This document shows, piece after piece, positions 40,845 to 59,842 of a DNA stretch of 64,000 nucleotides; the first letter of the stretch is position 1, and the number at the start of each line of letters is the position of its first letter. The translations under genes were made by a program, and so were the position numbers. This stretch comes from Wenzhouxiangella sp. Its GTDB lineage: Bacteria; Pseudomonadota; Gammaproteobacteria; Xanthomonadales; Wenzhouxiangellaceae. The stretch lies in assembly GCA_007134485.1 (NCBI GenBank), contig SLKT01000040.1:16696-80695 (forward strand), written 5' to 3'. Below the pieces are notes generated by a model, which worked only from the letters and a program-made list of their open reading frames with translations, ran no database searches and was not told the origin of the DNA.

Positions 40845-41567
40845 TCACGTCCCCGACGAGTCAACGCGTCGCTGAACCTCGTCAAGCACGCGATTGACGA
40901 CCTGTTCGAGTGTCAGCCGGGTCGAATCGATCACCACGGCATCATCGGCAGCCACCGTCGGCGACACCGCTCGTTCGCGGTCGCGCCGGTCGCGCGCCTC
41001 AAGGTCGCGAAAAAGACGGAGAAATTTAACACTTTCTCCTTTTTCTTTCAACTGTTTATATCGCCGATTTGCCCTTTCCTCGACGCTGGCGTCCAGAAAA
41101 ATCTTGATCGGCGCATCGGGAAAGACCACCGTGCCCATGTCGCGACCGTCGGCAACCAGGCCCGGAGGCCGTCGAAAACCACGCTGCAGATCGAGCAATG
41201 CTGCCCTGACGGCGGGCAATACAGCGACTTTCGAGCTCATCGCGCTGACCGACTCGGTGCGCAGGCGATCATCAACGGCACGGCCATCCAGAAACACCAG
41301 AATGCCGTTGTCACCGGCCTCGAACTGCAAGTCCAGCGATTCGCATAGACTCACCAACCCGGCCTCGTCGTCCGCCTTAAGGCCTTTTTCCAGCGCGGCA
41401 GCCGCGACGGCCCGGTAGACTGCTCCCGAGTCAAGCACATGCCAGTCCAGTGCCCGGGCCACCCGTGCCGACACCGAGCCCTTGCCCACACCGGAAGGCC
41501 CATCAATGGTCAGGACGGGAGCCTTTTCTCGAGTCCCGAGTCCCGAGTCCCGAGTCCCGGCCATCAT
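40845..41567 (-). CDS. cmk: Cytidylate kinase
   Basis: TIDGPSGVGKG, LDSGAVYR, VADGRDMGTVVFPDA, FLDASVEERANRR; start at ATG 41567 overlapping aroA stop. Confidence 0.96.
   Translation of the reverse strand: MMAGTRDSGLGTREKAPVLTIDGPSGVGKGSVSARVARALDWHVLDSGAVYRAVAAAALEKGLKADDEAGLVSLCESLDLQFEAGDNGILVFLDGRAVDDRLRTESVSAMSSKVAVLPAVRAALLDLQRGFRRPPGLVADGRDMGTVVFPDAPIKIFLDASVEERANRRYKQLKEKGESVKFLRLFRDLEARDRRDRERAVSPTVAADDAVVIDSTRLTLEQVVNRVLDEVQRRVDSSGT
41531..41558 (-). repeat. (GGGACTC)4 heptamer tandem repeat, G-quadruplex pattern, inside the cmk 5' coding region
   Basis: GAGTCCC x4 on plus strand; GGG-ACTC-GGG-ACTC-GGG-ACTC-GGG on the mRNA strand. Confidence 0.9.
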
Positions 41568-42859
41568 ACCCACTCCATTTCCGCGCCCAGGGCGCGCATG
41601 TCGTCGACGAATCCCGGATAGCTGGTGCGAATCCACTCGGCATTGTCGATGATCACCGGCGAGTCAGCCACCAGGCCGAGCACGGCCAGGCTCATGGCAA
41701 TGCGGTGATCGCCACCACTGTCCACCTGTCCACCCCGTATGCGACCACCATGGATCAGCGCGCCATCGGCGCTCTCCTCGAGCTCAACGCCCAGCCTGGC
41801 CAATTGCCCGCACATGACCGCCAGACGATCGGACTCCTTGACCCGCAACTCGGCCGCGCCCTGGATTCGGGTACGATCGGCGGCAACGGCCGACAGCGCC
41901 ATGATGACCGGAAACTCATCGATCGACAGCGGCACCCATTCCATCGGCACATCAATGCCGACCAGCTCGCTGTCGCGCACATCGAGACCACCAACCGGCT
42001 CACCGCCCAGATCCTCGCCCAGGGCGATTTCAAGGCGCCCGCCCATGGCTTGCAGAATGCGAATGACCCCATCGCGGGTTGGATTGAGACCGACATTGTC
42101 GATGCGGATCTCCGATCCGGGCACCAGCAGGCCCGCCGCGATCACGAATGCCGCGGCACTGAGATCGCCGGGAACATGAAAATCACCGCCGTGCAAAACC
42201 TGCCCCCCGGATACCCCGATTCCCGGCTGGCCATCATGAAGCCCGGCGCCGAAGGCCGGCAGCAGGCGTTCGGTATGGTCACGGCTGGGCCCGGGTTCGA
42301 TCACCACCGTATTGCCCTCGGCAGCCAGGCCGGCCAGCAGAATGGCGGACTTGACCTGGGCGCTGGCGACCGGTAACTGGTAGCGAATACCGGTCAGTGT
42401 TCGCGGACTCAATTTCAGGGGCGCATGGCCCTGGTCCGACTCGATCATCGCACCCATGCCAGTCAATGGCTTGATGATGCGCGCCATCGGACGGCTCGAC
42501 AACGAGTGATCGCCGATCAGCTCCAGCGTCGAACCGAACAATTCACCTCGCCCGGCCAATGCCCCGCACAGCAGGCGCATGCCGGTGCCCGAATTGCCCA
42601 GATCAAGCGGTCCCTCCGGAGCCTTCAGGGGACCGGGATCGATCACGATTTCATCATCGCGATCCTCGATTCGAGCGCCCAGGGCGCCCATGGCGTTGAG
42701 CGTGGCCCGGGTGTCGGCACTGTCAAGAAACCCGGTCACCCGGGTGCGACTGCGCGCGAGTCCACCGAGAATCGCCAGTCGATGCGAAATCGACTTGTCT
42801 CCCGGCGGGACATAGGCACCCTTCAGGGGAGTATCGGCTGGCGCTACTCGCAATTTCAT
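41564..42859 (-). CDS. aroA: EPSP synthase
   Basis: PGDKSISHR, LGNSGT, ASAQVKS, SRDHTE, LRVKESDR, DHRIAM. Confidence 0.98.
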   Translation of the reverse strand: MKLRVAPADTPLKGAYVPPGDKSISHRLAILGGLARSRTRVTGFLDSADTRATLNAMGALGARIEDRDDEIVIDPGPLKAPEGPLDLGNSGTGMRLLCGALAGRGELFGSTLELIGDHSLSSRPMARIIKPLTGMGAMIESDQGHAPLKLSPRTLTGIRYQLPVASAQVKSAILLAGLAAEGNTVVIEPGPSRDHTERLLPAFGAGLHDGQPGIGVSGGQVLHGGDFHVPGDLSAAAFVIAAGLLVPGSEIRIDNVGLNPTRDGVIRILQAMGGRLEIALGEDLGGEPVGGLDVRDSELVGIDVPMEWVPLSIDEFPVIMALSAVAADRTRIQGAAELRVKESDRLAVMCGQLARLGVELEESADGALIHGGRIRGGQVDSGGDHRIAMSLAVLGLVADSPVIIDNAEWIRTSYPGFVDDMRALGAEMEWV

Positions 42860-43980
42860 TGACCAAGGACCTGCCTGAGCGCGGCCAGTACGCGTTCATT
42901 CTGCGCCGGTGTGCCAATGGTGATGCGCAGATAATTATCGAGGCCGTAGTTGCCGACCGGGCGAACGATCACGCCCTGGCGCAAGAGCTTTTCATTGAGC
43001 TCATCGCCACTGGTCTCGAATTCGGCCAGCACGAAATTGGCCGCCGACGGAATCACTCCGGCGCCCATGGCCTCGAGCCCCGAACGCAGCAACTTCATGC
43101 CCTCGGCATTGATCGTTCTGCTGCGGGCAATGAAGTCATGATCGTCGAGGGCGGCCCGAGCGGCGGTCAGGGCCAGTGCATTGACGTTGAAGGCCGGGCG
43201 TACGCGGTTGAGCAGGTCGGCAATACCCGGGTTGGACAGCGCATAACCGATGCGCAGGCCCGCCAGGCCATAGGCCTTGGAAAAGGTCCGGGTCACGACC
43301 AGGTTGGGAAACTCCTCCAGCCAGGTCGAGGCATCGCCAAGGCGGTCCCCTTCGGCATATTCCGTATAGGCCTCGTCGACCACGCAGATGACATGCCCCG
43401 GCAATGAACCGACAAAGTCCTTCAGGCGCTGACCGTCCAGCCAGGTGCCGGTGGGATTGTTGGGATTGGCGACAAATACCAGCCGGGTCTCGGGTCCGAC
43501 CCGTTGATACAGCGCCCTGAGGTCATGGCCCAACGGCATGGCATGATCGCGCGGCAGGGCCGGGGCAACCTGCGCGGTGGCGCCGACCATCTGGGTGGCG
43601 ATGGGATAGACCGCGAAGCAGTACTGCGAAAACACCGCCTCCAGACCGGGCTGGAGAAACGCCTGGGCGAGAAACACCAGCACATCGTTGGAGCCGTTGC
43701 CCAGGGTGATGCAGGCCGGGTCGACGGCATGTCTGGCCGCCAGTGCCTGCTTGAGTTCGAAGCCATTGGCGTCCGGATACAGCCATAGATCATCGAGCTC
43801 TCCGGCAATCGCCGCGAGCGCCTTCGGACTGGCGCCGAGCGGATTCTCGTTGGAGGCCAACTTGATCGAATCGCTCACCCCGTATTCGCGCTCAAGTTCG
43901 GAAATCGGCTTGCCGGGCGTATAGGGCATGAGTTCACGAACACCGGGCACGGCCAGTTCACTGTAGTCGTAATTCTTCAT
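42856..43980 (-). CDS. hisC: Histidinol-phosphate aminotransferase
   Basis: YTPGKP, KLASNENPLG, NPNNPTG, DEAY, RTFSKAYGLAGLRIGY. Confidence 0.95.
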   Translation of the reverse strand: MKNYDYSELAVPGVRELMPYTPGKPISELEREYGVSDSIKLASNENPLGASPKALAAIAGELDDLWLYPDANGFELKQALAARHAVDPACITLGNGSNDVLVFLAQAFLQPGLEAVFSQYCFAVYPIATQMVGATAQVAPALPRDHAMPLGHDLRALYQRVGPETRLVFVANPNNPTGTWLDGQRLKDFVGSLPGHVICVVDEAYTEYAEGDRLGDASTWLEEFPNLVVTRTFSKAYGLAGLRIGYALSNPGIADLLNRVRPAFNVNALALTAARAALDDHDFIARSRTINAEGMKLLRSGLEAMGAGVIPSAANFVLAEFETSGDELNEKLLRQGVIVRPVGNYGLDNYLRITIGTPAQNERVLAALRQVLGQ

Positions 43981-43994
43981 GGCATCAGCTTGTT

Positions 43995-45149
43995 TCAGGG
44001 GGGCGGTGAATCGGAGGCTTCGCTGTCGGGAAGTCGACCCAGCACCGCCCGCGGATAGGATCCAAGCACCTTGACCAGGCGCGCCTCGCCATCGAGATCA
44101 GCCATGGCGGCTTTCAGTCCATCGTCTTCGACATGGCCGTCGACATCGATGAAGAATACGTAATCCCATCGCCCCTGCCGACTGGGCCGGGACTCGATGC
44201 GATTCATGTTGACCTGGTGGCGGGCCAGCGGTTCGAGCAGCTTGAACAGGGCGCCGGGACCATCGCGACCGGCCACCAGCAAGGTGGTCTTGTCATCGCC
44301 CGAGGGGGGCAGCAGATCACGGCCGAGCACCAGGAAACGGGTGGTGTTGTCGACGTGATCCTCGATGTTGGCAAACAGCACCGGCAGACCATAAACCTCG
44401 GCGGCGTGGCGACCGGCGATGGCGGCGGCATCGGGCGCGTGCCGGACCCGTCGGGCCGCCTCGGCGTTGCTGGACACCGGCACGGTCTCGGCCCGGGGCA
44501 GGTTGGCCGCCAGCCAGTGCTTGCACTGGGCCAGCGACTGGGGGTGGGAGTAGACCCGCTCGATGTCATCCAGGCGCCGGGCCCGGGTCAGCAGGTGCTG
44601 ATGGATGCGCATCTCGACCTCGGCGGCAATCTTGAGATCGGAATGCAGAAACATGTCCAGGGTGTGCGAGACAATGCCCTGGGTGGAGTTTTCGACCGGC
44701 ACCACGCCGAAATCGGCCTCGCCGGCCTGGACCTGCATGAAAACCTCTTCGATGCTCGGCTGGGCCAGGCCGTTGACCGAATGGCCGAACTGGCGATAAA
44801 CGGCTTGCTGGGTAAACGTGCCCTCGGGACCGAGATAGGCAATTCGCATCGGTTCCTGCTGGGCCAGGCAGGCGGACATGATCTCGCGAAACACCCTGAG
44901 CATCACCGCATCGCTCAACGGCCCTTCATTTCGCTCGATCACCTTCTTGAGCACCTGGGCTTCACGGTCGGGCCGATAGTAGGCAGCCGCGGCCTCCAGT
45001 TGTCCCTTGGCCCTGCGAACCGCAGCCGCCAGCTCCGCCCGCTCGGCAATCAGTTGCTGAATCTGCCGATCCAGCTCGTCAATACGCGCCCGGATCTCCG
45101 GCAACTCGAGATTGGCTTTGACCTGAACGGGTTTGTCAGACGCAGTCAA
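43995..45149 (-). CDS. pheA: Chorismate mutase / prephenate dehydratase (P-protein)
   Basis: RARIDELD, YRPDREAQV, LGPEGTFT, PVENSTQG, HPQSLAQC, NTTRF, IESRP; TTG start after GGAG. Confidence 0.96.
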   Translation of the reverse strand: MTASDKPVQVKANLELPEIRARIDELDRQIQQLIAERAELAAAVRRAKGQLEAAAAYYRPDREAQVLKKVIERNEGPLSDAVMLRVFREIMSACLAQQEPMRIAYLGPEGTFTQQAVYRQFGHSVNGLAQPSIEEVFMQVQAGEADFGVVPVENSTQGIVSHTLDMFLHSDLKIAAEVEMRIHQHLLTRARRLDDIERVYSHPQSLAQCKHWLAANLPRAETVPVSSNAEAARRVRHAPDAAAIAGRHAAEVYGLPVLFANIEDHVDNTTRFLVLGRDLLPPSGDDKTTLLVAGRDGPGALFKLLEPLARHQVNMNRIESRPSRQGRWDYVFFIDVDGHVEDDGLKAAMADLDGEARLVKVLGSYPRAVLGRLPDSEASDSPPP

Positions 45150-45168
45150 ACGACTTCTCCAGGGATCG

Positions 45169-45240
45169 GGGAGACGGGAGACGGGAGACGGGAGACGAAA
45201 ACCCTACCCTTGCTCGTCTTCCGTCTTCCGTCTTCCGTCT
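45169..45240. repeat. Paired heptamer arrays (GGGAGAC)4 and (CGTCTTC)3+, imperfect inverted repeat
   Basis: 45169-45196 and 45215-45240 in the serS-pheA spacer. Confidence 0.9.
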
Positions 45241-45245
45241 ATCCA

Positions 45246-47814
<2,569 letters not shown>

Positions 47815-47822
47815 TTATCCGG

Positions 47823-48689
47823 TCAGTCGTCGGTCCGCATCTGGTCGAAGTATCGGAAGAACTCCGAACGCGTATCCATCAGCATGACGTCCTTTTCGGT
47901 TCCGAAGCTCTTGTCGTAGGCTTCCAGGCTGCGCCAGAACGAATAGAATTCACGGTCGCGCTCGAAGGCCTCCGCGTAGATCTCGATGGCGCGGGCGTCA
48001 CCTTCACCACGCAGGCGCTGGGCATCTCGTTCGGCATCGGCGAGCAGCACACGCACCTGACGGTCAGCGTCAGCACGAATGCGCTCGGCCCGCTCGCGAC
48101 CGAGCGAGCGCAACTCGTTGGCAAACTCGGTTCGCTGGGTTTCCATTCGCTCGAACACGGAATTGAGGACCTCGTCGGTCAATTCGATCTTCTTGATCCG
48201 CACATCGATCACATCCAGACCGAAGTCCTGGAACCGTCGGTCGGCGCGAACGACCAGACCCTCCATCATCTCGCGACGCTGCTCCGAGACCACTTCACTG
48301 AGGGTTCGCTGGGCAAATTCATCGCGCAGGTCATTACGGATCAGCTGGCTCAGGCGCGCACGGGCAAACATCATGTCGCCCCCTTGCGTTGAAACATAGA
48401 ACTCACGCGGATCGGTAACTCGCCACTTGACGTAGTAGTCAACCTCGACGAACTTCTGCTCGGCAGTGTTCATCTGCTCCGGACGCATGTCCAGGGTAAT
48501 CATGCGCTTTTCGATCTTGTGCACGTTGTTGATGAACGGCATCTTGAAATGCAATCCCGGTTCATAGTCCGCGCGCACGACCTCTCCAAGGCGGAACTTG
48601 ATGGCGAACTCGGTCTCCTTGACCACGAATACGCTGTTGAGCCCGATGACCAGGGCCACGATGATGATGATCGGAATGAAAATTCTCAT
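47823..48689 (-). CDS. hflC: FtsH modulator HflC
   Basis: N-terminal TM, PGLHFKMP, SPFH domain, FYSFWRSLEAY; start moved to ATG 48689. Confidence 0.96.
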   Translation of the reverse strand: MRIFIPIIIIVALVIGLNSVFVVKETEFAIKFRLGEVVRADYEPGLHFKMPFINNVHKIEKRMITLDMRPEQMNTAEQKFVEVDYYVKWRVTDPREFYVSTQGGDMMFARARLSQLIRNDLRDEFAQRTLSEVVSEQRREMMEGLVVRADRRFQDFGLDVIDVRIKKIELTDEVLNSVFERMETQRTEFANELRSLGRERAERIRADADRQVRVLLADAERDAQRLRGEGDARAIEIYAEAFERDREFYSFWRSLEAYDKSFGTEKDVMLMDTRSEFFRYFDQMRTDD

Positions 48690-48690
48690 G

Positions 48691-49845
48691 TCAGCGTCCC
48701 TCCCGGCCGCGGCGGGCCCGAGCATCGGTTTGTGACATTCGCTGCTGTTCCTGGGGTGACATCAGGGGCGATGGCGGTGGCGGCGCAGCGCCGTGGCCCT
48801 CGCGCATGGTATCGAGCGGCAAATAGAACATGTTGTTGGAATCGGTCACATCCATCAGGATCTTGGCAGAGCGCCCGTAGACCTTCTCCAGGGTTTCGAG
48901 GTAAAGACGCTCACGGGTCACCTCGGGCGCCAGGGCGTACTGGTCATAAATGGCGACAAACCGGTCGGCCTCACCAGTCGCCTGGGCGATGATGGCATCG
49001 CGATAGCCCTGGGCTTCCTCGAGCACTCGAGCTGCCCGACCACGCGCCTCCGGCACCTCCTGGTTGGCGTACGCCTGGGCTTCGTTGGCAAAGCGGATCT
49101 GGTCCTCTCGGGCGCGAACGACATCGTCAAAGGCCGAGCGAACCTGGCTGGGTGGACGAACCTGCTGAAGGTTGAAAGAAGTGATATCGATACCCGGGTC
49201 GTAGCGCGAGATGATCTCCTCGAGCAGCGCCTGGCTGTCAAGGGCAACCTGGCCTCGACCGATCTCGAGGATGAAGTCCATGTTGTTGGTGCCGACGATT
49301 TCGCGCATGGCGCTATCGGCGGCCTGGGCCAGCGAGTCGATCGGGTCCTCGACATTGAACAGGAATTTCTCCGGTTCAACGATTCGATATTGCACCGCGA
49401 AGGCCAGGTCGATGAGGTTCTCATCACCGGTCAGCATGCGGCTCTGGCTTTCCAGGGAACTGACCCGGCTGACGTTGACCTTGATGACTTCCTCGATCGG
49501 TCGCGGCATGGTGATATTGAAACCCGGCGTCAGCGTGCGACTGTATTCACCGAAACGCAGCACGACGCCGCGCTCGGATTCGTCGACAATATGAATGGAG
49601 TTCCAGGCAATCCAGATCAGCAACAACACGCCGACCAGCAGAAACAGGCCGCCCATTGACGGGCCACCCCTTCCTGACGATCCGCGCTTGTCATCACCAC
49701 CACCGCCGCCCATGATCTTCTTCAAGCGGCGCTGGACGTTGGCGAAGACCTCATCGAGGTCGGGCGGTTGCTGACCATTGCCGCCTTTCCAGGGATCGCG
49801 GTCACCACCGCCACCACTTCCCCGTCCGGGTTCATTCCAGGGCAT
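48691..49845 (-). CDS. hflK: FtsH modulator HflK
   Basis: MPWNEPG, DPW, QQPPDLDE, LTGDENL, VTRERLYLET; start moved to ATG 49845. Confidence 0.96.
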   Translation of the reverse strand: MPWNEPGRGSGGGGDRDPWKGGNGQQPPDLDEVFANVQRRLKKIMGGGGGDDKRGSSGRGGPSMGGLFLLVGVLLLIWIAWNSIHIVDESERGVVLRFGEYSRTLTPGFNITMPRPIEEVIKVNVSRVSSLESQSRMLTGDENLIDLAFAVQYRIVEPEKFLFNVEDPIDSLAQAADSAMREIVGTNNMDFILEIGRGQVALDSQALLEEIISRYDPGIDITSFNLQQVRPPSQVRSAFDDVVRAREDQIRFANEAQAYANQEVPEARGRAARVLEEAQGYRDAIIAQATGEADRFVAIYDQYALAPEVTRERLYLETLEKVYGRSAKILMDVTDSNNMFYLPLDTMREGHGAAPPPPSPLMSPQEQQRMSQTDARARRGREGR

Positions 49846-49941
49846 TGACTTCTCCGTAGATTCCGATTGCCTGTGGGTAAGAAAATTCTTGGATTCCGGT
49901 AGCGCTCGCACAACCTGATGGCGCGCCGTCTACCGGGCCGA

Positions 49942-51249
49942 CTAGTTTAACAGGAGTTGCTCGGCCAGTTTACCGTCAGGACCGTCAAGGCGGGTCAATT
50001 GCCGCACATCGCGCCGGTCCAGATCAACCTCGAGCTCACTGCCGCCCCGGTCATCAACGCGTTCGGTGCGTACCACGCCCAGCTCGAACAGCCGGGCGCG
50101 CAGACGCTGACGCTTGGCCGGCAGGTGAATCCAGCGGTGAATGCGACCTTCGCCGATGCGCTCGCCAATGGCCTCGGCCAATGCATCCATGCCTGCGCCG
50201 GTGCGCGCCGACACCCACACGGCGCTCACCTTCCCGGAAGCATCGCGCTCCAGACCGGCCGCATGCTCCGACAGGTCGACCTTGTTAAAGACTTTCAGGT
50301 GTTCCAGGTCGCCGGCCCCGATGTCATTGAGCACCTCTTCAACGACGCCCTGATGGCGCAACCGGTCGGGATCGACACAATCGATGACGTGAATCACCAG
50401 GGTCGCCGACAGCGTCTCTTCGAGTGTCGCGCGAAACGCCGCGATCAGCTCATGCGGCAGATCACGAATGAATCCGACCGTGTCGGAGACCAGCACGGTG
50501 CCTCCGTCAAGTCCCTGGATTCGCCGCACGGTCGGGTCCAGGGTTGCGAACAATTGGTCCTTTTCCAGCACCTCGGCCGAGGTCATGCGATTGAACAGGG
50601 TGGATTTGCCGGCATTGGTGTAACCGACCAGCGCGACCAGTGGCGCCTCGCCGCGCTCACGCGCTCGACGACCCTGGGCGCGACGCTGCTCGACCTTGGC
50701 CAGTCGGGCGGTCAACTGACGAATGCGATTGCCAAGCAGGCGGCGATCGGTTTCGAGCTGGGTTTCACCCGGCCCGCGCAAACCGATTCCGCCGCGCTGG
50801 CGTTCGAGGTGAGTCCAGCCACGAACCAACCGGGTGGACAGGTGTTTGAGCTGAGCCAGCTCAACCTGCAACTTGCCTTCATGGGAGCGTGCTCGCTGGG
50901 CGAAGATGTCCAGAATCAAGGTGGTGCGGTCGAGCACGTTGCACTTGAACCGTCGCGCCAGGTTGCGCTCCTGGACCGGGCTCAGCCGGGCGTTGACCAG
51001 GACCAGCCCGACCTGGTGCTCGGCGATCTGCTCAGCCACCTCCTCGACCTTGCCCGACCCAACCAGATAGCGTGGATCCGGCCGATCCCGCGGCGCCTTG
51101 ACCTCGGCCACAATCTCCAGACCAGCGGATTCGGCCAGCAGCCGGAACTCTTCTCGCGAATCGGCATCATCCCCGACTTCCATAATCGGATGGAGCAACA
51201 AGGTGGCCGAACTTGCGGCCCGTTGGGCCGATGAAGCGGAATCGATCAG
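49942..51249 (-). CDS. hflX: Ribosome-splitting GTPase HflX (probable CTG start at 51249; ORF track start 51201)
   Basis: [51 protein letters not shown]; GAGGAG 8 nt before a CTG that overlaps the hfq stop. Confidence 0.95.
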
Positions 51250-51485
51250 GGTTCAGACTCCTCGTCGCCCGGATCAAGTCGCACGTTGCGCGCCGGAACG
51301 ACGGTCGAAATGGCATGTTTGTAGATCATCTGGCTGACCGAATTCTTGAGCAAGACCACAAAGTTATCGAACGATTCGATCTGCCCCTGCAACTTGATCC
51401 CGTTGACCAGATAGATCGCGACCGGAATGCGCTCCCGACGCAATGCATTCAGGAATGGATCCTGCAGCGATTGACCTTTAGACAT
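51246..51485 (-). CDS. hfq: RNA chaperone Hfq
   Basis: [38 protein letters not shown]. Confidence 0.99.
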
Positions 51486-51567
51486 ATTATTCTCCTTTGA
51501 ATTCTCAGTCTATCGTTGTTGAGGGATCGTTTGCATTCCATGCGATTTCGCCCGGCTGCAAGCCCAT

Positions 51568-52533
51568 TCAGCCGAGTCTGCCTCGCTGTCGTGAAAATCT
51601 CTCTACCTGATTGAAAATTCTCTTAATTGTAAGGCTTCTGCCCGGATCATACCAGAGTGCGCCTGAAAACTGTCGCAATGCGGTCAACTGCCGCTTGGCC
51701 AGCTGCCGGGTGGCGGATCGGGCTCGGTCGACGAATGCCTGTCGATCAAGCCGCCCATCGAGATACTGCCAGGCCTGGCGATAACCGACACTGCGCATGG
51801 ACGGCGATGACACACTCAGCGCGCGACGTCGACGCAAAGCCGAAACCTCATCGAGAAACCCCGCCTCCAGCATTTGGTCAAGCCGTATGCCGATACGCTG
51901 ATGCAATACATGGCGATCAGTCGGGGTCAACACAAGTCGGAGCGTGACCAGGCGCGGCAAGCGATTGTGACGATGAAAACAACTGGGCCCCTTGCCGGTC
52001 AGTCGGACAATCTCGATGGCGCGCTGGATTCTCTGTGGATCATTGACTGAAATCGAGGCGGCCGCCTGCGAGTCGATTCGCGCCAACTCGGCATGCAGGG
52101 CCGCCCAACCGCTGGATTCGGCCTGACGAGCGATCTGGCGACGCACTTCCGGGTCAGCGCCTGGCAAGCGGTCCAGGCCATAGATCAGGGCACGCAACCA
52201 CATCATGGTGCCGCCAACCAGTAGCGGTAAACGCTTGTTGCGTGCCGATTGCTCCATGCAGGCCCGGCAATCACGCTCGAAATCCGCCGCCGAATAGGCT
52301 TGCTCGGGCTCACAGACATCGATCAGGGCATGGGGAAAGCGTTGGCGAGTGGCGGCGTCAACCTTGGCCGAGCCGATATCCAGGCCGCGGTAAACCTGGG
52401 TCGAATCGACACTGATCAAGTCAACCGGGAAACGCTCGGCCAGGGCCAGTGCAATCGCGGTCTTGCCGGCCGCCGTGGGTCCGGCCAGGATTACCGCCGG
52501 TGGCAGGACCGGATGGTCGTCGCTATTGTCCAC
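51568..52533 (-). CDS. miaA: tRNA dimethylallyltransferase
   Basis: GPTAAGKT, ISVDSTQVYRGLDIGSAK, VGGT, RSVGYRQ, TRQLAKRQ. Confidence 0.97.
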   Translation of the reverse strand: MDNSDDHPVLPPAVILAGPTAAGKTAIALALAERFPVDLISVDSTQVYRGLDIGSAKVDAATRQRFPHALIDVCEPEQAYSAADFERDCRACMEQSARNKRLPLLVGGTMMWLRALIYGLDRLPGADPEVRRQIARQAESSGWAALHAELARIDSQAAASISVNDPQRIQRAIEIVRLTGKGPSCFHRHNRLPRLVTLRLVLTPTDRHVLHQRIGIRLDQMLEAGFLDEVSALRRRRALSVSSPSMRSVGYRQAWQYLDGRLDRQAFVDRARSATRQLAKRQLTALRQFSGALWYDPGRSLTIKRIFNQVERFSRQRGRLG

Positions 52534-54283
52534 GCAGGAACAGCCGGTCCAGCGACTTCATGTCCATCTGCACCCAGGTCGGCCGTCCATGATTGCATTG
52601 ATCGCTACGCTCGGTGCGCTCCATGTCCCGCAGCAGGCCGTTCATCTCGTCGAGCGTCAAGCGGCGGTTGGCCCGCACCGATCCGTGGCAGGCCATGGTG
52701 GAGAGCAATTCATCAATGGCCGACTCCACTCGGGTGCTGTCACCCAATTCGACCAGATCGGCCAACACATCGCGCACCAGGACGATGCTGTCGGCCCGGG
52801 CCAGCAAGGTCGGTACGGCCCGGATCACCAGGCTTTCCGGGCCGGCCAGGCCCAGGTCGAAGCCAAGCTGATTGAGCGCATTCGCATGCGTTTCCAGTGC
52901 GTTGGCTTCGCGCCGCGAAATGGCCAGCTTCTCGGGGACCAGCAAGCGCTGGGACTTGACCCGCTCCTGAGACCAGGTGCTCTTGAGTTGCTCGTAGACA
53001 ATGCGTTCGTGAGCAGCATGCATGTCGACCACGATCAGACCCTGGGCGTTTTCGGCCAGCACAAACACACCATGAATCTGGGCAACGGCAAATCCCAGGG
53101 GTGGAATGTCCTGCGCGTCCTCACCGCCTTCGGACTGACGGATCGATGCCAGCTCGGCATAGCGCGCAACGCTGTCTCTCACCCCGAGGCCCAGCCCGCC
53201 CTGCTGACCCGATGCCGCGGGGCCGGAATGACCGGATCGCGCGAACGCCTCATCGGGCGTCGCGGACGCACCGGCCGATCCACCGGGCCGGGTCTCGGCC
53301 AAGAACGAGTGTATCGTCGAAAACAGGAAGTCATGAACCAGACGACTGTCACGGAACCGGACTTCGGTCTTTTGCGGATGAACATTGACGTCGACCCGAC
53401 CCGGATCAATGTCAAGCTTGAGCACGAAGGCCGGATGGCGACCGTGAAACAGCACGTCCCGATAGGCCTGGCGAATGGCATGGGCCACCAGCCGGTCCTT
53501 GACCAGGCGGCCATTGACGAAAAAGAACTGCAAGTCGGCTTGACTGCGCGAGAAGTTCGGCCGGGCAATCCAGCCGGACAAACGCAAGCCGGCATGCTCG
53601 CGTTCAATGTTCAGCGATTGCTCGACAAACTCATTGCCGCACACCTCGCCCACCCGACGTTGTTCACCGGCCTGATCCGACACCGATGGCAGACGCCGAA
53701 CCGCTCGCCCGTTGTTGATCAGTTCAAAGCCGATCCCCGGGCAGGCCAGGGCCATGCGCCGGACCAGTTCATCGATGTGGTTGTACTCGGTCCGTTCGGT
53801 ACGCAGGAACTTGCGCCGGGCCGGGGTGTTGTAGAACAGGTCGCCGACCTCGATGACGGTCCCGGGCGGCATCCCTGACGGGGCCGGTTCGCCGACCTGC
53901 CCGCCTTCGGCCGTGACTTCGAAACCGCTGTCCTGGTCGGGCGGCCGCGAGGCCAGGCGGACCCGCGCCACCGAGGCAATCGAGGGCAGCGCCTCACCGC
54001 GAAACCCCAGACTCGCCACCCCTTCCAGATCCTCCAGGCAGGCGATCTTGCTGGTCGCATGGGCGCTCAAGGCCAGGATCAGTTCATCGCGTGCAATGCC
54101 GCGACCATCGTCACTGACCCGTATTCTGCGCGTCCCGCCCTGCTCCACTTCCACGCGGATCTTTCCAGCACCGGCATCAATGCTATTTTCGACCAGCTCC
54201 TTGACCACCGACGCCGGACGCTCAACCACTTCCCCCGCAGCGATCTGGTTGACTAGATGGACTGGAAGCTGACGGATGGACAT
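52523..54283 (-). CDS. mutL: DNA mismatch repair protein MutL
   Basis: NQIAAGEVVERPASVVKELVENS, GFRGEALPSI, DMHAAHERI, ACHGS, CNHGRPT. Confidence 0.98.
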   Translation of the reverse strand: MSIRQLPVHLVNQIAAGEVVERPASVVKELVENSIDAGAGKIRVEVEQGGTRRIRVSDDGRGIARDELILALSAHATSKIACLEDLEGVASLGFRGEALPSIASVARVRLASRPPDQDSGFEVTAEGGQVGEPAPSGMPPGTVIEVGDLFYNTPARRKFLRTERTEYNHIDELVRRMALACPGIGFELINNGRAVRRLPSVSDQAGEQRRVGEVCGNEFVEQSLNIEREHAGLRLSGWIARPNFSRSQADLQFFFVNGRLVKDRLVAHAIRQAYRDVLFHGRHPAFVLKLDIDPGRVDVNVHPQKTEVRFRDSRLVHDFLFSTIHSFLAETRPGGSAGASATPDEAFARSGHSGPAASGQQGGLGLGVRDSVARYAELASIRQSEGGEDAQDIPPLGFAVAQIHGVFVLAENAQGLIVVDMHAAHERIVYEQLKSTWSQERVKSQRLLVPEKLAISRREANALETHANALNQLGFDLGLAGPESLVIRAVPTLLARADSIVLVRDVLADLVELGDSTRVESAIDELLSTMACHGSVRANRRLTLDEMNGLLRDMERTERSDQCNHGRPTWVQMDMKSLDRLFLRGQ

Positions 54284-54349
54284 GGGTGGTGGAGGTGGGT
54301 TGAGGAACGCGTCTGTCGGAGCATTTATGGTAACCCGGTTGGGGGGAAG

Positions 54350-54398
54350 CGGTTTCCGGTTTACGGTTTCCGTCTCCCATCTCCCGTCTCCCGTCTCC
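54350..54398 (-). repeat. Seven contiguous heptamers (CGGTTT[C/A])3-(C[G/A]TCTCC)4 between amiB and mutL; G-quadruplex pattern on the mRNA strand
   Basis: Minus strand reads GGG-AGAC-GGG-AGAC-GGG-AGAT-GGG then GGAAACCGTAAACCGGAAACCG. Confidence 0.9.
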
Positions 54399-54406
54399 CG
54401 TTGGAG

Positions 54407-55723
54407 TCAGCTCCCGCCCGGAATCACCAGCACGGACCCGGGATGAATCACATCCCCATTGAGGTTGTTGGCCTCGCGCAGGCGTCCCACCGACACCTGG
54501 TAGCGTTGTGCGATAAGGCCCAGGGACTCGCCCCGTGACACGACATGGCGATCGCGCACACGGTTAGCCGCAAACCAGGTGCCTTGCGGCGCATTGCGCT
54601 CGAAATGACGCTGCACGCCGGCGGTAATGGCCTCGGCGACCTGGCGACGGTGGGTGGCATTATTGAGATTCTGCTCATCCTGCGGGTTGCTGATGAAGCC
54701 GACCTCGATCAGCACGCTCGGGACATCGGGCGAGCGCAGAACCACGAAGTTGGCGCGCTCGACTCGGCTGCGATGCCGTCGGCCGACGTGGCCGAGCTGA
54801 TCGAGGATCTGCTCGGCGGCATCGTTGCTGTACTCCAGGGCAGCGCTTTGTGATAGATCGAGCAGCACGGAGTTGAGCATGTCATCGCCCCGGTCCAGCT
54901 TGACGCCACCGACCAGATCCGACTGGTTCTCGCTTTCGGCCAGCAGGCGGGCGGCCTCACTGGACGCGCCGCTTCGTGACAGCACATAGACCGAGCTGCC
55001 GCGCACGCGAAAATCCTGGAAGGCATCGGCATGCAGGGACACGAAAAGATCGGCCTTGGCCTTGCGAGCGCGATTGTAGCGCTCGTGCAGGGGCACAAAA
55101 TAATCACCGGTGCGGATCAGGACCGCGCGCATACCGGGTTTGTCGTCGATATGCTTGGCCAACTCTCTGGCAATGGCCAGCGTCACCTCTTTTTCCTGGG
55201 TGCCGCTGGGACCGATTGCCCCCGGGTCTTCGCCGCCGTGTCCGGGATCAATGGCGACGATCATGTCACGCTCGCCCCGGGTGGCCTCGCGCACTACTTC
55301 GCGAACCCGCTCGGCCGGGCTCTGGGCATCTTCGGGGGTCAGATCAATGACAAGGCGATGGCCGTACTTGCCGGCCGGGTCGAGCAGAAAGCTTTGCGGT
55401 TTGGCGCCGGCCTCGAGATCAAAAACCACGCGCAAGTCCGTACCGTTGCGCACGCCATGACGCACACCCCGGATCACCCCGCCACGTTCGCTATCGAACG
55501 GCAACTCACCGGCCGTCGCGGCGCCATCGATGTCGACAACCACTCGGGCCGGATCATCCAGGGTGAACAATCGGTACTCGACACGCTGGTCGAGATCAAG
55601 TACGGCCCGGGTGCTGTCGGGACCCGCCCAGACGCGCAGATTCTCGATTTCGGCCGCCCAGGACAGCGAAACCCCGACCACCAGGACGGCAGCGAAGCAG
55701 ATTTTGGCCTTGAGCATTGACAT
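54407..55723 (-). CDS. amiB: N-acetylmuramoyl-L-alanine amidase (AMIN, Amidase_3, LysM), AmiB/AmiC type
   Basis: Signal peptide, IDPGHGGEDPGA, FVSLHADA, PSVLIEVGFISN, C-terminal LysM; directly upstream of mutL. Confidence 0.9.
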   Translation of the reverse strand: MSMLKAKICFAAVLVVGVSLSWAAEIENLRVWAGPDSTRAVLDLDQRVEYRLFTLDDPARVVVDIDGAATAGELPFDSERGGVIRGVRHGVRNGTDLRVVFDLEAGAKPQSFLLDPAGKYGHRLVIDLTPEDAQSPAERVREVVREATRGERDMIVAIDPGHGGEDPGAIGPSGTQEKEVTLAIARELAKHIDDKPGMRAVLIRTGDYFVPLHERYNRARKAKADLFVSLHADAFQDFRVRGSSVYVLSRSGASSEAARLLAESENQSDLVGGVKLDRGDDMLNSVLLDLSQSAALEYSNDAAEQILDQLGHVGRRHRSRVERANFVVLRSPDVPSVLIEVGFISNPQDEQNLNNATHRRQVAEAITAGVQRHFERNAPQGTWFAANRVRDRHVVSRGESLGLIAQRYQVSVGRLREANNLNGDVIHPGSVLVIPGGS

Positions 55724-55853
55724 CAACGGCGTCCACCATGAACTGACCCGCTAACAATGATGCACTCAAATGATCAATATTTCAAGCTAAAACTGATAGA
55801 TACAAGCATTTCCCAGAACCAGGGTTCAGTTCAGGCCGTAACTCTGAACTTAC

Positions 55854-56345
55854 TCATCCCGTCCGGCCCAGCTCGCGGGAGCCGTGCTCCTCATCCCGGC
55901 TTTCCCCATCTCGCAATCCGAGCAGCACCTCAAGCTGTTCACTCTTCTCATTCGACAGAAGATCGGCCAGGGTGTATCGATTCAGAGTCGCCAGGAATTG
56001 TGCAAGCGCTTCACCAAGCATTCCCTTCAGTCGACAGGCCGGAGTGATCACGCATTGATTGTCGGAGCGGAAGCATTCGACCAGCCCCAGATCGGGCTCC
56101 ATGACCCGAACCACTTCACCAATACGGATTTCGTCCGCTGCACTAGACAGGTTCAATCCGCCACCGACTCCGCGAACGGAACGCACGTAGCCACTGGCCG
56201 CCAGCCGCTGAACGACTTTCATCAGGTGGTTTCTCGAGATTCCATAGGCCTCTGAAATCTCCCGGATGGTGCTACGCTCGTCGGGCCTGAGACCCAGGTA
56301 AATCAGTACTCTGAGTGAATAGTCGGTGTAGTGGGTCACTCTCAT
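55854..56345 (-). CDS. nsrR: Rrf2-family NO-responsive repressor NsrR
   Basis: TDYSLRVLIYL, SRNHLMKVV, RGVGGG, LVECF...CVITPACRL (three Cys). Confidence 0.85.
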   Translation of the reverse strand: MRVTHYTDYSLRVLIYLGLRPDERSTIREISEAYGISRNHLMKVVQRLAASGYVRSVRGVGGGLNLSSAADEIRIGEVVRVMEPDLGLVECFRSDNQCVITPACRLKGMLGEALAQFLATLNRYTLADLLSNEKSEQLEVLLGLRDGESRDEEHGSRELGRTG

Positions 56346-56474
56346 GGTTCGTCTGTCAGCAGCCAGGCCGGGAACCGGATCGGATACTGAATGCCTCCGC
56401 TAGGTTTAGGATTCCGTCAACATCTGAACCGTTTTATAACGCAGGATCGACATCACTCACTTGAGCAGCGTCAA

Positions 56475-56486
56475 TAAATGCATTCA
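56475..56486. promoter_or_regulatory. Possible NsrR half-site upstream of nsrR
   Basis: TAAATGCATTCA, palindromic AATGCATT core, resembles the AANATGCATTT half-site; no good second half-site. Confidence 0.3.
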
Positions 56487-56530
56487 AAAAAGTGTTTTTA
56501 GGACAATTGACCGATTTTAGTCAAGTGTTC

Positions 56531-57331
56531 TCAGCGGGCAGGCAAGAACTTGAGCGGATCCTCGGGCCGGCCATCACGGCGAATCTCGAAATGCAGGATT
56601 TCTTCATCGCGCTCGTTGCGACCCATTTCGGCAATCGCCTGGCCTGCCCGAACCCGGTCTCCCTCATTGACCAGACGACGCCGGTTATGCCCATAGGCAG
56701 ACAACATGCTTTCCGAGTGCTTGATGATGATCAGGTCGCCATATCCGATCAGAGCGGCGCCACTGTAGACCACATCCCCCTCGGCGGCGGCGACCACGGT
56801 CTGTCCGGACTCACCGCCAATTCCGATCCCGCGCCGTGTCGCCGAGGGATCGAACGGCCGGGTGACTCGCCCTTCAGTCGGCCAGCGCCAATCCACACCG
56901 GCCACGCGCCGGGTCTCATCCGGATCGGCTGATTCGTCCGGCCTGGACTCCGGTTCCGGGGCCTTCGGTTGCGGGACTTCCTCCTTGGTTTCGGTTGGAG
57001 TGGTCTCGGCGACGCGCGGTGGAGCGCTCATGCGCAGCTCCTGACCCGGCCGGATGGTGTAGGGCTCATCAATATCATTCCAGTCGGCCACCTTTCGCCA
57101 ATCCAGACCGAAGCGAAAGGCTATCGAGTAAAGGGTGTCTCCCCGACGCACTTCGTAAATGGGCGGGGGTGGTTGAACGGGCGGGCGGGTGTCCGTGGGC
57201 GGTGCCGGAACTCGCGGCTCATCGACCGGGTCCGGGCGCCAGGGGCCACAGGCGGTAACCAGCGCCATGGCCAACAGCACAAGCAGAAACATTCGAACTG
57301 GTGCGAGACCACATGGGCGCCTCGGAGACAT
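56531..57331 (-). CDS. nlpD: LysM + M23 lipoprotein NlpD
   Basis: Lipobox VTAC, VRRGDTLYSIAFRFG, WRWPTEG, YGDLIIIKH, LHFEIR; downstream of pcm; exact start uncertain. Confidence 0.92.
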   Translation of the reverse strand: MSPRRPCGLAPVRMFLLVLLAMALVTACGPWRPDPVDEPRVPAPPTDTRPPVQPPPPIYEVRRGDTLYSIAFRFGLDWRKVADWNDIDEPYTIRPGQELRMSAPPRVAETTPTETKEEVPQPKAPEPESRPDESADPDETRRVAGVDWRWPTEGRVTRPFDPSATRRGIGIGGESGQTVVAAAEGDVVYSGAALIGYGDLIIIKHSESMLSAYGHNRRRLVNEGDRVRAGQAIAEMGRNERDEEILHFEIRRDGRPEDPLKFLPAR

Positions 57332-57345
57332 CAGGTCACCCGACT

Positions 57346-58005
57346 CTACTCAAGGCCACCCAGCAGCGGCACGAACACCACAAGCCCAAGATCTTCACGT
57401 TCGAATCCCTTGTCCGTGCGCGTGGTACGAATCAGGCGCTGATGGCGCCCTTCCTGTTCGGGAGCCACAAGAACACCGCCAACCGCCAATTGTTCAAGCA
57501 GTGAATCCGGAATCAAGCCACCGGCCGTGACCAGGATGGCGTCGAAGGGCGCCTGGGTCGGCCAGCCGTTCAATCCATCGGCATGGCGAGTGTAAATGTT
57601 GTGCATCCCAAGACTGTGGAAACGCTGGCGCGCCAGGCGCACCAGCTCGCCGATCCGCTCGGTGCTGAAGACCTTGTCGGCCACGCGGCTCAGGATTGCG
57701 GCTTGGTAGCCTGAGCCCGTGCCGATCTCAAGCACCTTGGACAATCTGCCGTCACCAAGCACCGCCTGGGTCATCAGGGCCACCACGTAGGGTTGCGAGA
57801 TGGTCTGTCCCCGACCAATGGGCAAGGCGGTATCTTCGTAGGCACGCGAAGAAAGCGCTTCATCGACAAACAGGTGACGCGGGGTCACCCTGATCGCCTC
57901 GAGTACCCGCTCGTCGCGTATACCCTTGGCGCGCAGGCGACTGACCAGGCGCTGGCGCGTGTTCTCCGAGGTCATGCCGATGCCCCGCTGGGCCGCAGGT
58001 GTCAT
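57346..58005 (-). CDS. pcm: Protein-L-isoaspartate O-methyltransferase
   Basis: [36 protein letters not shown]. Confidence 0.97.
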
Positions 58006-58775
58006 TCCCTCCCCCCACTGGAATTTAGATGGTCGATCCAGTGACTGACCTGATCAAGCGCCTGATACCGGGTCAGGTCGACGTGAATGGGCGTCACCGA
58101 GACAAATCCCTGGCGGATTGCATTGAAGTCGGTGCCGGGGCCGTTGTCCTGCTCGCCGCCCGGCGGGCCGATCCAGTAGAAGCTGCGCCCGCGGGGGTCA
58201 TTGAGCGGTATGACATCCTCGGATCGATGTCGGTGCCCAAGCCGAGTGGTTTCAAAGCCCCTGACCTCTTCCCAGGGCAAATCGGGTACGTTGACATTGA
58301 GAATCGTGTCCGCCGGCAGCGGTTCGGCGATCAGACGCTGCATCAGGATGCGCGCCACCCGGGCGGCGGTTTCGTAATAACTAGGGCCTTCGCGGCCGTA
58401 AACCAGAGACACGGCCATCGCCGGGAGACCGAGAAATCGACCCTCCATGGCCGCGGCCACTGTCCCGGAATAGAGCACATCATCGCCGAGATTGGCGCCG
58501 GCATTGATGCCGGAAACCACCATGTCCGGCTCCTCTTCGAGCAAGCCCGTGATGGCAATATGCACGCAATCGGTGGGTGTGCCGAATACCCGGTAGGCGC
58601 CGTCACTACGTCGGTCCACCCGAATCGGCTGATCCAGGGTCAGAGAGTTGCTGGCGCCCGATCGATCCCGATCCGGAGCAACCACGGTCACCTCTCCACA
58701 CTCTGCAAGTCGCTCGGACAACAGGCGAATTCCCGGTGCGTACAGGCCATCGTCGTTGGATATGAGAATATGCAT
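58002..58775 (-). CDS. surE: 5'/3'-nucleotidase SurE
   Basis: [48 protein letters not shown]. Confidence 0.98.
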
Positions 58776-58837
58776 GCTTGAATGGTCCTCGGTCAGACGT
58801 CACTATAAATGCTTGCAAGCCGCTTCGGAGAGTTTTG

Positions 58838-59371
58838 ATGGCCATCGACGATGACGAACGCGAACTGTTTCGCAGCTCGGTCGGTCCAGTGCGCCGAATT
58901 CAGGCAGAGCGCCGTCACCAGCCGCAACCGGCCGCTCGGCCCGTACCCGCGCAGCGTCAGGCCGACGAGACAGCCGTTCTGGACGAAATGGCCCATGGCC
59001 CGATCGATTTCGACCACATCGAATCCGGAGAGGAGCTGCAATGGCTTCGTCCGGGGATGCAGAAGCGAATTGTAAAGCGTTTGCGTCGTGGACACTGGCG
59101 TGTTCAGGATGAAATCGATCTTCACCAGATGAATACCGAGGCCGCTGCAAATTCGATCCGGACATTCATACGCCTGGCCGAGCGCGATGGCTTGAGCTGT
59201 GTCAAGATCATCCATGGCAAAGGCTTGAGGTCCGGGCCCGATGGCCCTCGCCTCAAGCGCCTGACGGCCCGATTGCTCAGCCGCATGAGCCCGGTTTGCG
59301 CATTTTCCTCTGCGCCCGCCCATGACGGCGGCACGGGTGCAGTCTATGTGCTGTTGAAACCCGGGCGTTGA
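58838..59371 (+). CDS. Smr/MutS2 domain protein
   Basis: RLRRG, IDLH, KIIHGKG, GGTGAVYVLL; start moved to ATG 58838 after GGAG. Confidence 0.92.
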   Translation: MAIDDDERELFRSSVGPVRRIQAERRHQPQPAARPVPAQRQADETAVLDEMAHGPIDFDHIESGEELQWLRPGMQKRIVKRLRRGHWRVQDEIDLHQMNTEAAANSIRTFIRLAERDGLSCVKIIHGKGLRSGPDGPRLKRLTARLLSRMSPVCAFSSAPAHDGGTGAVYVLLKPGR

Positions 59372-59377
59372 CTCGAC

Positions 59378-59698
59378 ATGGACGGTGCGATAGCTGCATT
59401 CCTTGTTCTCGGCCTGGTCGCACTATGGTGGTACTCGGCCATCCAGGCGCGCGACCTGGCGCGTGATGTCGCCCGGGATTTCTGCAAGCGCCAGGGCTGG
59501 CAGTTGCTCGATCAGACGGTCGCCTTGATTTCAATGCGCCCGATTCGGCACAACGACCGCATGAGCTGGAAACGTCGCTATCGTTTCGACTTCAGCCCGG
59601 ATGGCGGGAAACGGCTCAGTGGCGAGTTGATGCTGATCGGCTACCGCCTGGAGACGATCTCCGCGGATCTGGAAAATGGGGGACGTCTGATTGAATGA
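59378..59698 (+). CDS. DUF3301 family membrane-anchored protein
   Basis: N-terminal TM, CKRQGWQLLDQTVAL, RYRFDFSPDG..R..GEL. Confidence 0.8.
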   Translation: MDGAIAAFLVLGLVALWWYSAIQARDLARDVARDFCKRQGWQLLDQTVALISMRPIRHNDRMSWKRRYRFDFSPDGGKRLSGELMLIGYRLETISADLENGGRLIE

Positions 59699-59702
59699 CT
59701 CT

Positions 59703-59824
59703 CGAGACGGGAGACGGGGAGGATTCAGGGGTCAGGGGTAAGTCTACTAAATCGAGGGCGGTGGATAACCTGAACCCTGAACCCTGAACCCTGAACCCTG
59801 AAACCTAAACCGGAACCCGGAAAC
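59703..59824. repeat. Composite heptamer arrays in the convergent DUF3301/sspB spacer
   Basis: (GAGACG)-type x2 at 59703-59716, (TCAGGG)-type x2 at 59724-59737, eight in-register heptamers at 59769-59824 starting with (CCTGAAC)4. Confidence 0.9.
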
Positions 59825-59842
59825 CGTCAGTTCCCCTGCCCC

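Follow-up and report, generated by a model that had tools for sequence, protein, structure and literature searches.

Intergenic heptamer and octamer arrays of a Wenzhouxiangella genome: strand polarity, array length and a link to PF05635 cassettes

In cyanobacteria, heptamer repeats were recognised decades ago, and in Xanthomonas they have been on record since 2015. Repeats composed of GGGAATC in Xanthomonas and of GGGGAYT in Nostoc PCC 7120 are ~90% intergenic, and arrays of four units are the most frequent (Rehm 2015, PMC4692102). They are located up to 50 bp past the stop codon when on the coding strand, or before the start codon when on the non-coding strand. Few of them lie between divergent genes, and convergent pairs able to form stem-loops are frequent; length and sequence of the repeats differ between close species (PMC4692102). 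Only the unit capable of forming a G-quadruplex (G4) was examined in that work, and G4 formation was observed in vitro for the Xanthomonas and Nostoc units (PMC4692102). The leading G4 idea for heptamer repeats rests mainly on the four-unit preference. Here, we analysed 64,000 nt of DNA from Wenzhouxiangella sp. (assembly GCA_007134485.1, contig SLKT01000040.1, positions 16,696 to 80,695; this whole stretch is referred to as the window) together with the remainder of the genome. The initial annotation of the window had pointed out four G-rich heptamer arrays, residing after aroA, between serS and pheA, after amiB and after sspB, respectively, and had proposed a genome-wide intercistronic element selected for its G4 shape. 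In our analysis, the arrays very probably belong to the known heptamer-repeat class and are not driven by G4 formation. We further lean towards the reading that they are arms, paired or orphan, of hairpin elements resembling the intervening sequences (IVS) of 23S rRNA genes, in the same class as the Xanthomonas and Nostoc repeats.

The short tandemly repeated repetitive (STRR) heptamers of cyanobacteria and the excess of heptamer simple sequence repeats in prokaryotes (Mazel 1990 and Mrazek 2007, as cited in PMC4692102) reportedly involve several unrelated units per genome, which are dispersed in non-coding DNA. These repeats are not known to show polarity, a length mode or an IVS link. The repetitive extragenic palindromes (REP), bacterial interspersed mosaic elements (BIME) and REPINs of Enterobacteria and Pseudomonas resemble the arrays described here in that hundreds of extragenic copies are located at gene 3' ends and within operons, with the fewest between divergent genes, and in that inverted doublets make hairpins whereas many singlets are decayed. 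However, the REP unit is a short palindrome, whereas the arms described here are strand-asymmetric (G-rich versus C-rich), not self-complementary and composed of tandem repeats of many sequences, and no gene for a REP-associated tyrosine (Y1) transposase (RAYT) was found in the assembly. Single arrays fold no better than their shuffles. S23p-bearing IVS are present in the 23S rRNA genes of Coxiella, Leptospira, Brucella and Xanthomonas; the Coxiella IVS comprises 428 nt and carries the S23p open reading frame (ORF) in a hairpin loop, whose 28-bp terminal stem is cleaved by RNase III (PMC4990558). Finally, TAACTGA direct repeats occur in marine Beggiatoaceae, cyanobacteria and Bacteroidetes (MacGregor 2015, PMC4679880). 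Like the arrays studied here they are intergenic heptamers with a patchy distribution across phyla (2-6 copies at >150 sites per genome in the case of TAACTGA), but they reside just upstream of starts, are AT-rich, use a single unit and include only one inverted pair.

To describe the population, arrays were called with Tandem Repeats Finder in the whole assembly (3.35 Mb, 206 contigs, 60.5% GC, 94.6% complete), yielding 403 non-redundant heptamer and 118 octamer arrays (521). Genome-wide gene positions came from a crude codon-usage gene caller; distances to start codons are approximate and distances to stop codons exact. Thus defined, the population comprises ~520 intergenic 7/8-nt arrays in ~270 clusters and includes at least 59 different heptamer units, among them GGGAGAC, GGAAGAC, GGGGTCA, GGGTTCA, CGGTTTC, GGTGGTC and AAAGGTG; the AGGGATC unit is present in only 7 arrays. 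Unit families are linked by single-base steps in one register. Perfect arrays with three or more copies number 198 for period 7, as compared to 6, 9, 16 and 3 for periods 5, 6, 8 and 9, respectively. Although the genome is 90% coding, 317 of 409 heptamer rows (77%) fall into spacers, with array densities of 1.9 per kb in convergent, 1.3 in tandem and 0.39 in divergent spacers. Within 15 nt of a stop codon the sense strand is G-rich in 61 arrays versus 12 (p = 5e-9), while at more than 50 nt from the stop it is C-rich in 58 arrays versus 8. Solo arrays reside a median of 6-11 nt past the stop codon of the gene for which they are sense-G-rich. The proposal of a genome-wide intercistronic element with positional and strand bias is thus borne out. 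The period-7 excess, the spacer location, the four-unit mode (see below), the strand placement, the presence of convergent pairs and the low density between divergent genes are likewise features of the Xanthomonas and Nostoc repeats; because the four-unit mode, the placement at stop codons, the convergent pairs and the divergent depletion were already described by Rehm 2015, the arrays belong to a known class. They differ, however, in that the unit consensus GGGNATC/GGGGAYT does not apply, that one genome contains at least 59 heptamer units as well as octamers, most of them without G3 runs, that the G tract holds the most variable position, that families are stacked in a fixed order and that pairs are tied to cassettes encoding a PF05635 protein. 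What is new here is the within-genome control that argues against G4 formation as the common principle, the strict polarity combined with the fixed stacking order of families, and the quantitative link to PF05635 within the genus.

The polarity is strict: G-rich arrays precede C-rich arrays in 97 of 97 two-sided clusters, and the order is identical on either strand. A complementary partner within 250 nt is present for ~30% of the arrays, with the G-rich arm located 5' in ~70 cases as compared to 2. In 47 of the 97 two-sided clusters no unit family is common to both sides and the arms cannot pair, showing that polarity is independent of pairing. C-rich partners remain beside the G-rich arm even when the next start codon is 158-275 nt away, and polarity thus seems to belong to the element itself and not to result from a filter acting at start codons; proximity to a start codon as the cause of the C-rich orientation is weakened by these pairs. 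Replication strand was rejected as a cause as well: in convergent spacers each array follows its own sense-G-rich gene, and as the rule for solo arrays holds for both genes of a convergent pair, the direction of replication is not responsible.

Array length is equally constrained. A length of ~24-31 nt is shared by the population, and in every family the mode is four heptamers (or three octamers), followed by a sharp drop at five. That is, counts fall from 58 arrays with four units to 7 with five in family A (GGGAGAC/GGAAGAC), from 19 to 6 for NNCAAGG and from 12 to 1 for CGGTTTC; families C, D, E and I have the same four-unit mode as family A, and CGCAGAGR octamers end at three units. Along the G-rich strand towards the centre, families follow each other in a fixed order (D-to-E 17:0, A-to-B 10:0, F first 11:0, C-to-B 6:2, C-to-E 6:1). 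The 7-nt register survives drift of the unit, as had been noticed initially for the window arrays, and genome-wide 9 of 10 A-to-B junctions and 6 of 6 C-to-B junctions are in phase. Moreover, 14 loci whose flanks are unrelated carry the imperfect word GGGGTCA-GGATTCA-GGGG, and ~25 loci carry a composite module in which CGGTTT[CA] units are joined via a conserved 9-nt linker to NNCAAGG units and a centre starting with AAAAC. C-rich arrays come next, as for example at positions 14520-14640 of contig C126; the module behaves as a dispersed repeat with variable arm lengths. Several further loci carry octamer-armed hairpins of 68-81 nt, in which three CGCAGAGR or ACGCAAAG units and their complement enclose a variable AT-rich loop, with the G-rich arm located 10-19 nt past stop codons. 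Given these recurring imperfect words, modules and the fixed order, the arrays are not independent products of slippage.

The orthologous sites of the four window loci are array-free in two congeners (G005 and G010), where the spacers measure 11-62 nt, and at the same sites three further congeners (G003, G006 and G013) carry other units (AGGTTTC/CCTGAAA, GGTTGGCT, GTTCCGG) in the G-then-C arrangement. The elements of G003 have inverted termini of ~75 nt in common, consisting of four heptamers plus a short GC-rich palindrome. The arrays are lineage-specific additions to spacers that are compact in sister species. Units are species-specific within the genus, and unit types turn over fast between species at the same spacer. 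In the amiB-mutL spacer of G018 and G013 (L139 and L137), which measures 220 nt, heptamers are replaced by an inverted pair of CACGGAA-containing repeats with a period of ~10-11 nt. GGGAGAC-type arrays occur in only 7 of the 201 genomes from the order, and in the case of the genus in 3 of 13. Exact (GGGAGAC)4 is nevertheless present in at least 120 stretches (L001-L120) from Gemmatimonadota, Bacteroidota, Acidobacteriota, Planctomycetota, Myxococcota and others; a single unit is thus found in very distantly related bacteria even though its distribution in the genus is patchy. Among the matches listed from other phyla, period 7 dominates (278 rows) and clusters are arranged G-then-C in 46 cases as compared to 6 with the reverse order.

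A link to the PF05635 (S23p) protein family emerged from the genomes of the genus. The only PF05635 gene of the present genome (contig C167, positions 1687-1992) is located between (GGGAGAC) x3.3 and (CCGTCTC) x4.6 in a cassette of ~457 nt (1623-2079; L153), which is inserted between the gene for ribosomal protein L33 (rpmG) and a radC-like gene; a second genome, G218, carries a PF05635 cassette with the same arrangement and the same offsets. The 14 genomes of the genus that were covered contain 30 PF05635 genes, of which 17 have inverted 7/8-nt arrays on both sides, and a further 9 of the 30 have an array on one side, 4 of these being located at loci cut by a contig end. In the bracketed copies the units are copy-specific, and the polarity is G-then-C regardless of the direction of the gene. 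Sampled DNA of congeners contains 0.081 arrays per kb in PF05635-positive genomes as compared to 0.009 in PF05635-negative genomes; given related genomes and small samples, this association is no more than suggestive. The cassette resembles S23p-bearing IVS in carrying a small four-helix-bundle ORF in the loop of an inverted-repeat hairpin, in its size (~457 nt as compared to 428 nt in Coxiella) and in its sporadic distribution and selfish look; four heptamers make 28 nt, which compares with the 28-bp stem of the Coxiella IVS. Unlike these IVS, it resides between protein genes (rpmG and radC-like) and not in helix 25 or 45 of the 23S rRNA gene, the window sites likewise being located between protein-coding genes; its arms are tandem heptamers, most copies lack the ORF, and RNase III cleavage is a prediction only. 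Since arms in the genus enclose a PF05635 gene, pairs without a gene look like empty IVS-like hairpins.

We therefore consider it somewhat probable that each array is one arm of an element composed of G-rich array(s), a centre and C-rich array(s). Such elements would occupy sites directly behind stop codons at which additional DNA is tolerated, and their arrays would change via slippage and unit substitution inside the fixed 7-nt register. In the window, the serS-pheA and DUF3301/sspB spacers would hold intact elements, and the arrays after aroA and amiB would represent orphan arms, that is half-elements. In the transcript, two matched arms with about four heptamers each (24-31 nt) would pair into a double-stranded RNA stem similar to the 28-bp stem of the Coxiella IVS. 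RNase III would then cut the stem, or the stem would shield 3' ends, in either case punctuating polycistronic transcripts or protecting their ends. This mode of action via RNase III and double-stranded RNA is a tentative proposal by analogy, which we hold to be less likely than its opposite; RNase III processing, and any benefit to the cell, are what we infer from the resemblance to IVS.

The window illustrates both kinds of element (gene assignments by Pfam). The stop codon of serS (45246-46523, minus strand; stop at 45246-45248) is followed after 5 nt by the G-rich arm (GGAAGAC) x3.7 on the minus strand (45215-45240), which has no GGG run and had been missed in the initial annotation. A loop of ~17 nt (45198-45214) separates it from GGGAGAC x4.1 on the plus strand (45169-45197), whose transcribed minus strand is the C-rich arm GTCTCCC and which lies ~19 nt upstream of the start of pheA (43995-45149, minus strand; start at 45149). 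The latter array had been described as located after a stop codon (45169-45196), which is incorrect, as its G-rich strand is antisense to both serS and pheA. All five congeners examined (L134, L137, L139, L141, L143) contain an additional 1.0-1.4 kb in the serS-pheA interval that is missing here. The second candidate intact element is in the convergent spacer between the DUF3301 gene (59378-59698, plus strand; stop at 59696-59698) and sspB (59843-60265, minus strand; stop at 59843-59845). Its plus-strand G-rich side, (GAGACGG) x2.1 followed by (TCAGGGG) x2.1 (59704-59739), begins 5 nt past the DUF3301 stop, and a centre (59740-59768) lies between the converging sets. The sspB side (59769-59825, minus strand) holds CGGTTTC-like units, GGTTTAG, GGTTTCA and (GGGTTCA) x4 in one 7-nt register, with a CCTGAAC-type run of x7.9 spanning 59769-59822; here the CGGTTTC-like units begin ~20 nt and the GGGTTCA run ~40 nt past the stop.

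The putative orphan arms follow amiB and aroA. Downstream of amiB (54407-55726, minus strand; stop at 54407-54409), the array (GGGAGAC/GGGAGAT) x4.6 (54370-54401, minus strand; top strand CCGTCTC) begins 5 nt past the stop and continues in the same 7-nt register into (GAAACCG) x3.3 (54350-54372, minus strand), ~66 nt upstream of the start of mutL (52523-54283, minus strand). The solo array (GGGACTC) x4.3 (41530-41559, minus strand; top strand CGAGTCC) lies 4 nt past the stop of aroA (41564-42859, minus strand; stop at 41564-41566), which is preceded by an aminotransferase gene (42856-43980, minus strand); it has no complementary partner and a fold z of -0.6. It falls within a probable N-terminal extension of the cmk reading frame (40845-41564, minus strand). 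As the sole in-frame start of cmk is an ATG overlapping the aroA TGA, (GGGACTC)4 would be translated into 10 residues preceding the P-loop, and any copy-number change other than by three units would break the frame. In G005 and G010 the N-terminus of cmk is shorter and array-free, and among the window arrays only this one lies in frame. Phase-variable contingency repeats, for comparison, reside in reading frames or promoters of surface or restriction genes and switch these via their copy number. The genes next to the window arrays have housekeeping functions without a common theme, and none of the four sites contains a PF05635 ORF. Repeat calling thus recovered all four arrays that had been reported; their placement right after a stop codon holds for aroA and amiB, applies loosely to sspB (~20-40 nt) and fails at 45169-45196, and the arrays at 54350-54372, 59704-59718 and 59725-59739 had been overlooked in addition to the one following serS.

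Several observations weigh against interpreting the arrays as hairpin arms. About 70% of them have no complementary partner within 250 nt, and the 47 two-sided clusters mentioned above cannot pair at all. Where cognate arms exist, their complementarity does not exceed that between non-cognate arms of one family, and sense and antisense transcripts fold equally well (24 versus 25). We looked for compensatory variation between cognate arms and found none; likewise, selection at the RNA level for G-U over A-C pairs was rejected in view of the equal folding of both strands. In the window, folding clearly beats shuffles at only one of the four reported sites, that is serS-pheA (45169-45197 plus 45215-45240), and even this spacer folds better on the antisense strand (-56.8 kcal/mol, z -6.5) than on the sense strand (-44.1 kcal/mol, z -3.5). 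Furthermore, a single PF05635 gene is set against ~270 clusters, the association of the family with arrays depends on related genomes and small samples, and neither a Y1 transposase nor a reverse transcriptase was found as a mobilising enzyme in the 94.6%-complete assembly.

The alternative that fares best, even though we regard it as unlikely, holds that the arrays are functionless simple-sequence repeats, generated by slippage that favours 7-nt units and persisting where they are harmless. In this case, placement and polarity would reflect purifying selection only, e.g. because Rho would be loaded onto C-rich RNA past a stop codon, and initiation would suffer from G-rich, Shine-Dalgarno-like RNA in front of a start codon. 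The network of single-base steps in one register, copy numbers of up to 35, the rapid turnover of units between species at the same spacer, neighbouring genes lacking a common theme and the absence of fine-scale covariation between arms fit this scenario, and polymerase slippage is also cited as an idea for the Xanthomonas and Nostoc repeats (PMC4692102). However, slippage at equilibrium does not give a sharp four-unit mode with a 4- to 8-fold decrease from four to five units. The recurrence at many loci of imperfect arrays identical to each other, of composite modules bearing a conserved linker and of a fixed family order, the C-rich arms that stay beside the G-rich arm far from any start codon, and the enclosure of the PF05635 gene by array pairs in 17 of 30 cases also speak against it.

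The original proposal, namely that the arrays are selected to form G4 in DNA or RNA, with four G runs and 4-nt loops as the unit and the shape being read by an unknown factor, appears improbable to us. Its statistical premise is sound: the motif G3N4G3N4G3N4G3 occurs 5 times in the window as compared to 0.06 expected, and the genome contains 73 sites versus ~1.6 in Markov simulations, a ~45-fold enrichment that is confined to loops of 4 nt, with 15 sites for loops of 5 nt and at most 5 for other lengths. In addition, four-unit arrays are commoner than three-unit arrays in GGG families, all GGGACTC arrays (6/6) have about four units, and in a folding model allowing quadruplexes the G4 wins for isolated arms, which adds to the G4 formation observed in vitro for the units of other genera. 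In the same model, however, the hairpin wins once the partner arm is present. The dozens of unit sequences within one genome provide a natural control for the G4 hypothesis. The canonical G4 motif (four runs of G3+ separated by N1-7) is present in the four reported arrays, yet in the whole population only 92 of 521 arrays contain it. Abundant heptamers such as CCGTCTT, CCGGTTT, CACCTTT, CGGTGGT and NNCAAGG lack G3 runs, as do the octamers GTTGGTTT, GCGTCTTT and CGCAGAGR, and octamer families without G runs have the same placement as heptamers; that is, units with GG only or without any G run, and octamers, share the four-unit mode, the stop placement and the polarity. Even within four-unit arrays of family A, pure GGGAGAC accounts for just 15 of 58, the remaining 43 holding at least one other unit. 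Among the positions of GGG-bearing arrays, it is the third G that varies most (19.6%, 17.3% and 14.1% non-consensus), whereas 'loop' bases mostly vary by 0-4%, and by up to ~10% in the GGGTTCA family; the invariant feature of the major heptamer families is a GG at fixed phase. A variable third G next to nearly invariant loops is the reverse of what selection on G4 shape predicts. Finally, one of the reported arrays (45169-45197) is G-rich only on the non-transcribed strand. Hence, the G4 potential is a side property of the GGG-bearing subset, which may fold into G4, and is not the unifying constraint.

Just as improbable are multivalent landing pads for a protein binding single-stranded nucleic acids with ~7 nt per domain (cold-shock-domain, S1-type OB-fold or CsrA-like), four units corresponding to four domains or subunits: the strict 7-nt period, the GG shared by all major heptamer families with nearly invariant non-tract positions, a four-unit mode independent of pairing, the polarity of clusters of which half are unpairable and the binding proteins proposed for the TAACTGA heptamers of Beggiatoaceae (PMC4679880) would fit, but at least 59 heptamer units plus octamer families without GG do not, one conserved binding protein cannot explain units that are species-specific within the genus, and no candidate protein was identified here.

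Further candidates were tried and rejected. Intrinsic terminators do not account for the arrays, as stem-loops with T-runs do not coincide with them (0 of 11 terminator-like sites in 41000-60500; 14.1 expected by chance). Provision of stop codons in three frames is not their purpose, since the commonest unit, GGGAGAC, has none on either strand, and the consensus RNA-polymerase pause motif (G-10 Y-1 G+1), compared by hand, fits GGGAGAC and GGTGGTC but misfits GGGGTCA and CGGTTTC. Searches against Rfam 15 gave no match at or above the gathering score; the serS-pheA hairpin merely produced sub-threshold microRNA-precursor matches (30-38 bits as compared to cut-offs of 88-99). Mobilisation by a REP/RAYT-type system was dismissed, as the assembly contains no match to PF01797 (Y1 transposase) while controls matched, and a reverse-transcriptase or telomerase-like writer was dismissed because the assembly yielded no RVT_1 match.

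The arrays also matter for assembly and annotation. In total, 119 arrays are found at most 100 nt away from the end of a contig, and at 89 of the 412 contig ends (22%) the sequence breaks off no more than 100 nt from a 7/8-nt array; the genome counts are thus lower bounds, and the repeats are one of the main reasons why the assembly is fragmented. The longest arrays, with up to 35 copies, run off contig ends. As exemplified by cmk, arrays can moreover lie in start-proximal coding sequence.

Taken together, the four-unit mode, the stop placement and the polarity hold in the absence of G tracts, and the G tract is the part of the unit that is conserved least. This shifts attention from G4 to arm length, polarity and the link with IVS-type hairpin cassettes, and it makes a testable prediction, namely RNase III-dependent cuts in paired arms. 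A bolder extension, which we consider a long shot, is that the array pairs found across phyla are the dispersed, mostly empty form of one mobile S23p/IVS cassette family, whose arms are rewritten in copy-specific 7-nt words by directional 3'-end extension. If true, this would explain why the G-rich strand runs 5' to 3' towards the centre from both sides, in all 97 two-sided clusters here and in 46 versus 6 clusters of other phyla, why arm families at many loci are layered in one and the same sequence, like growth rings, and why the arm length of ~28 nt equals that of an RNase III stem. The elements would then represent a general, hitherto undescribed system that punctuates bacterial operons.

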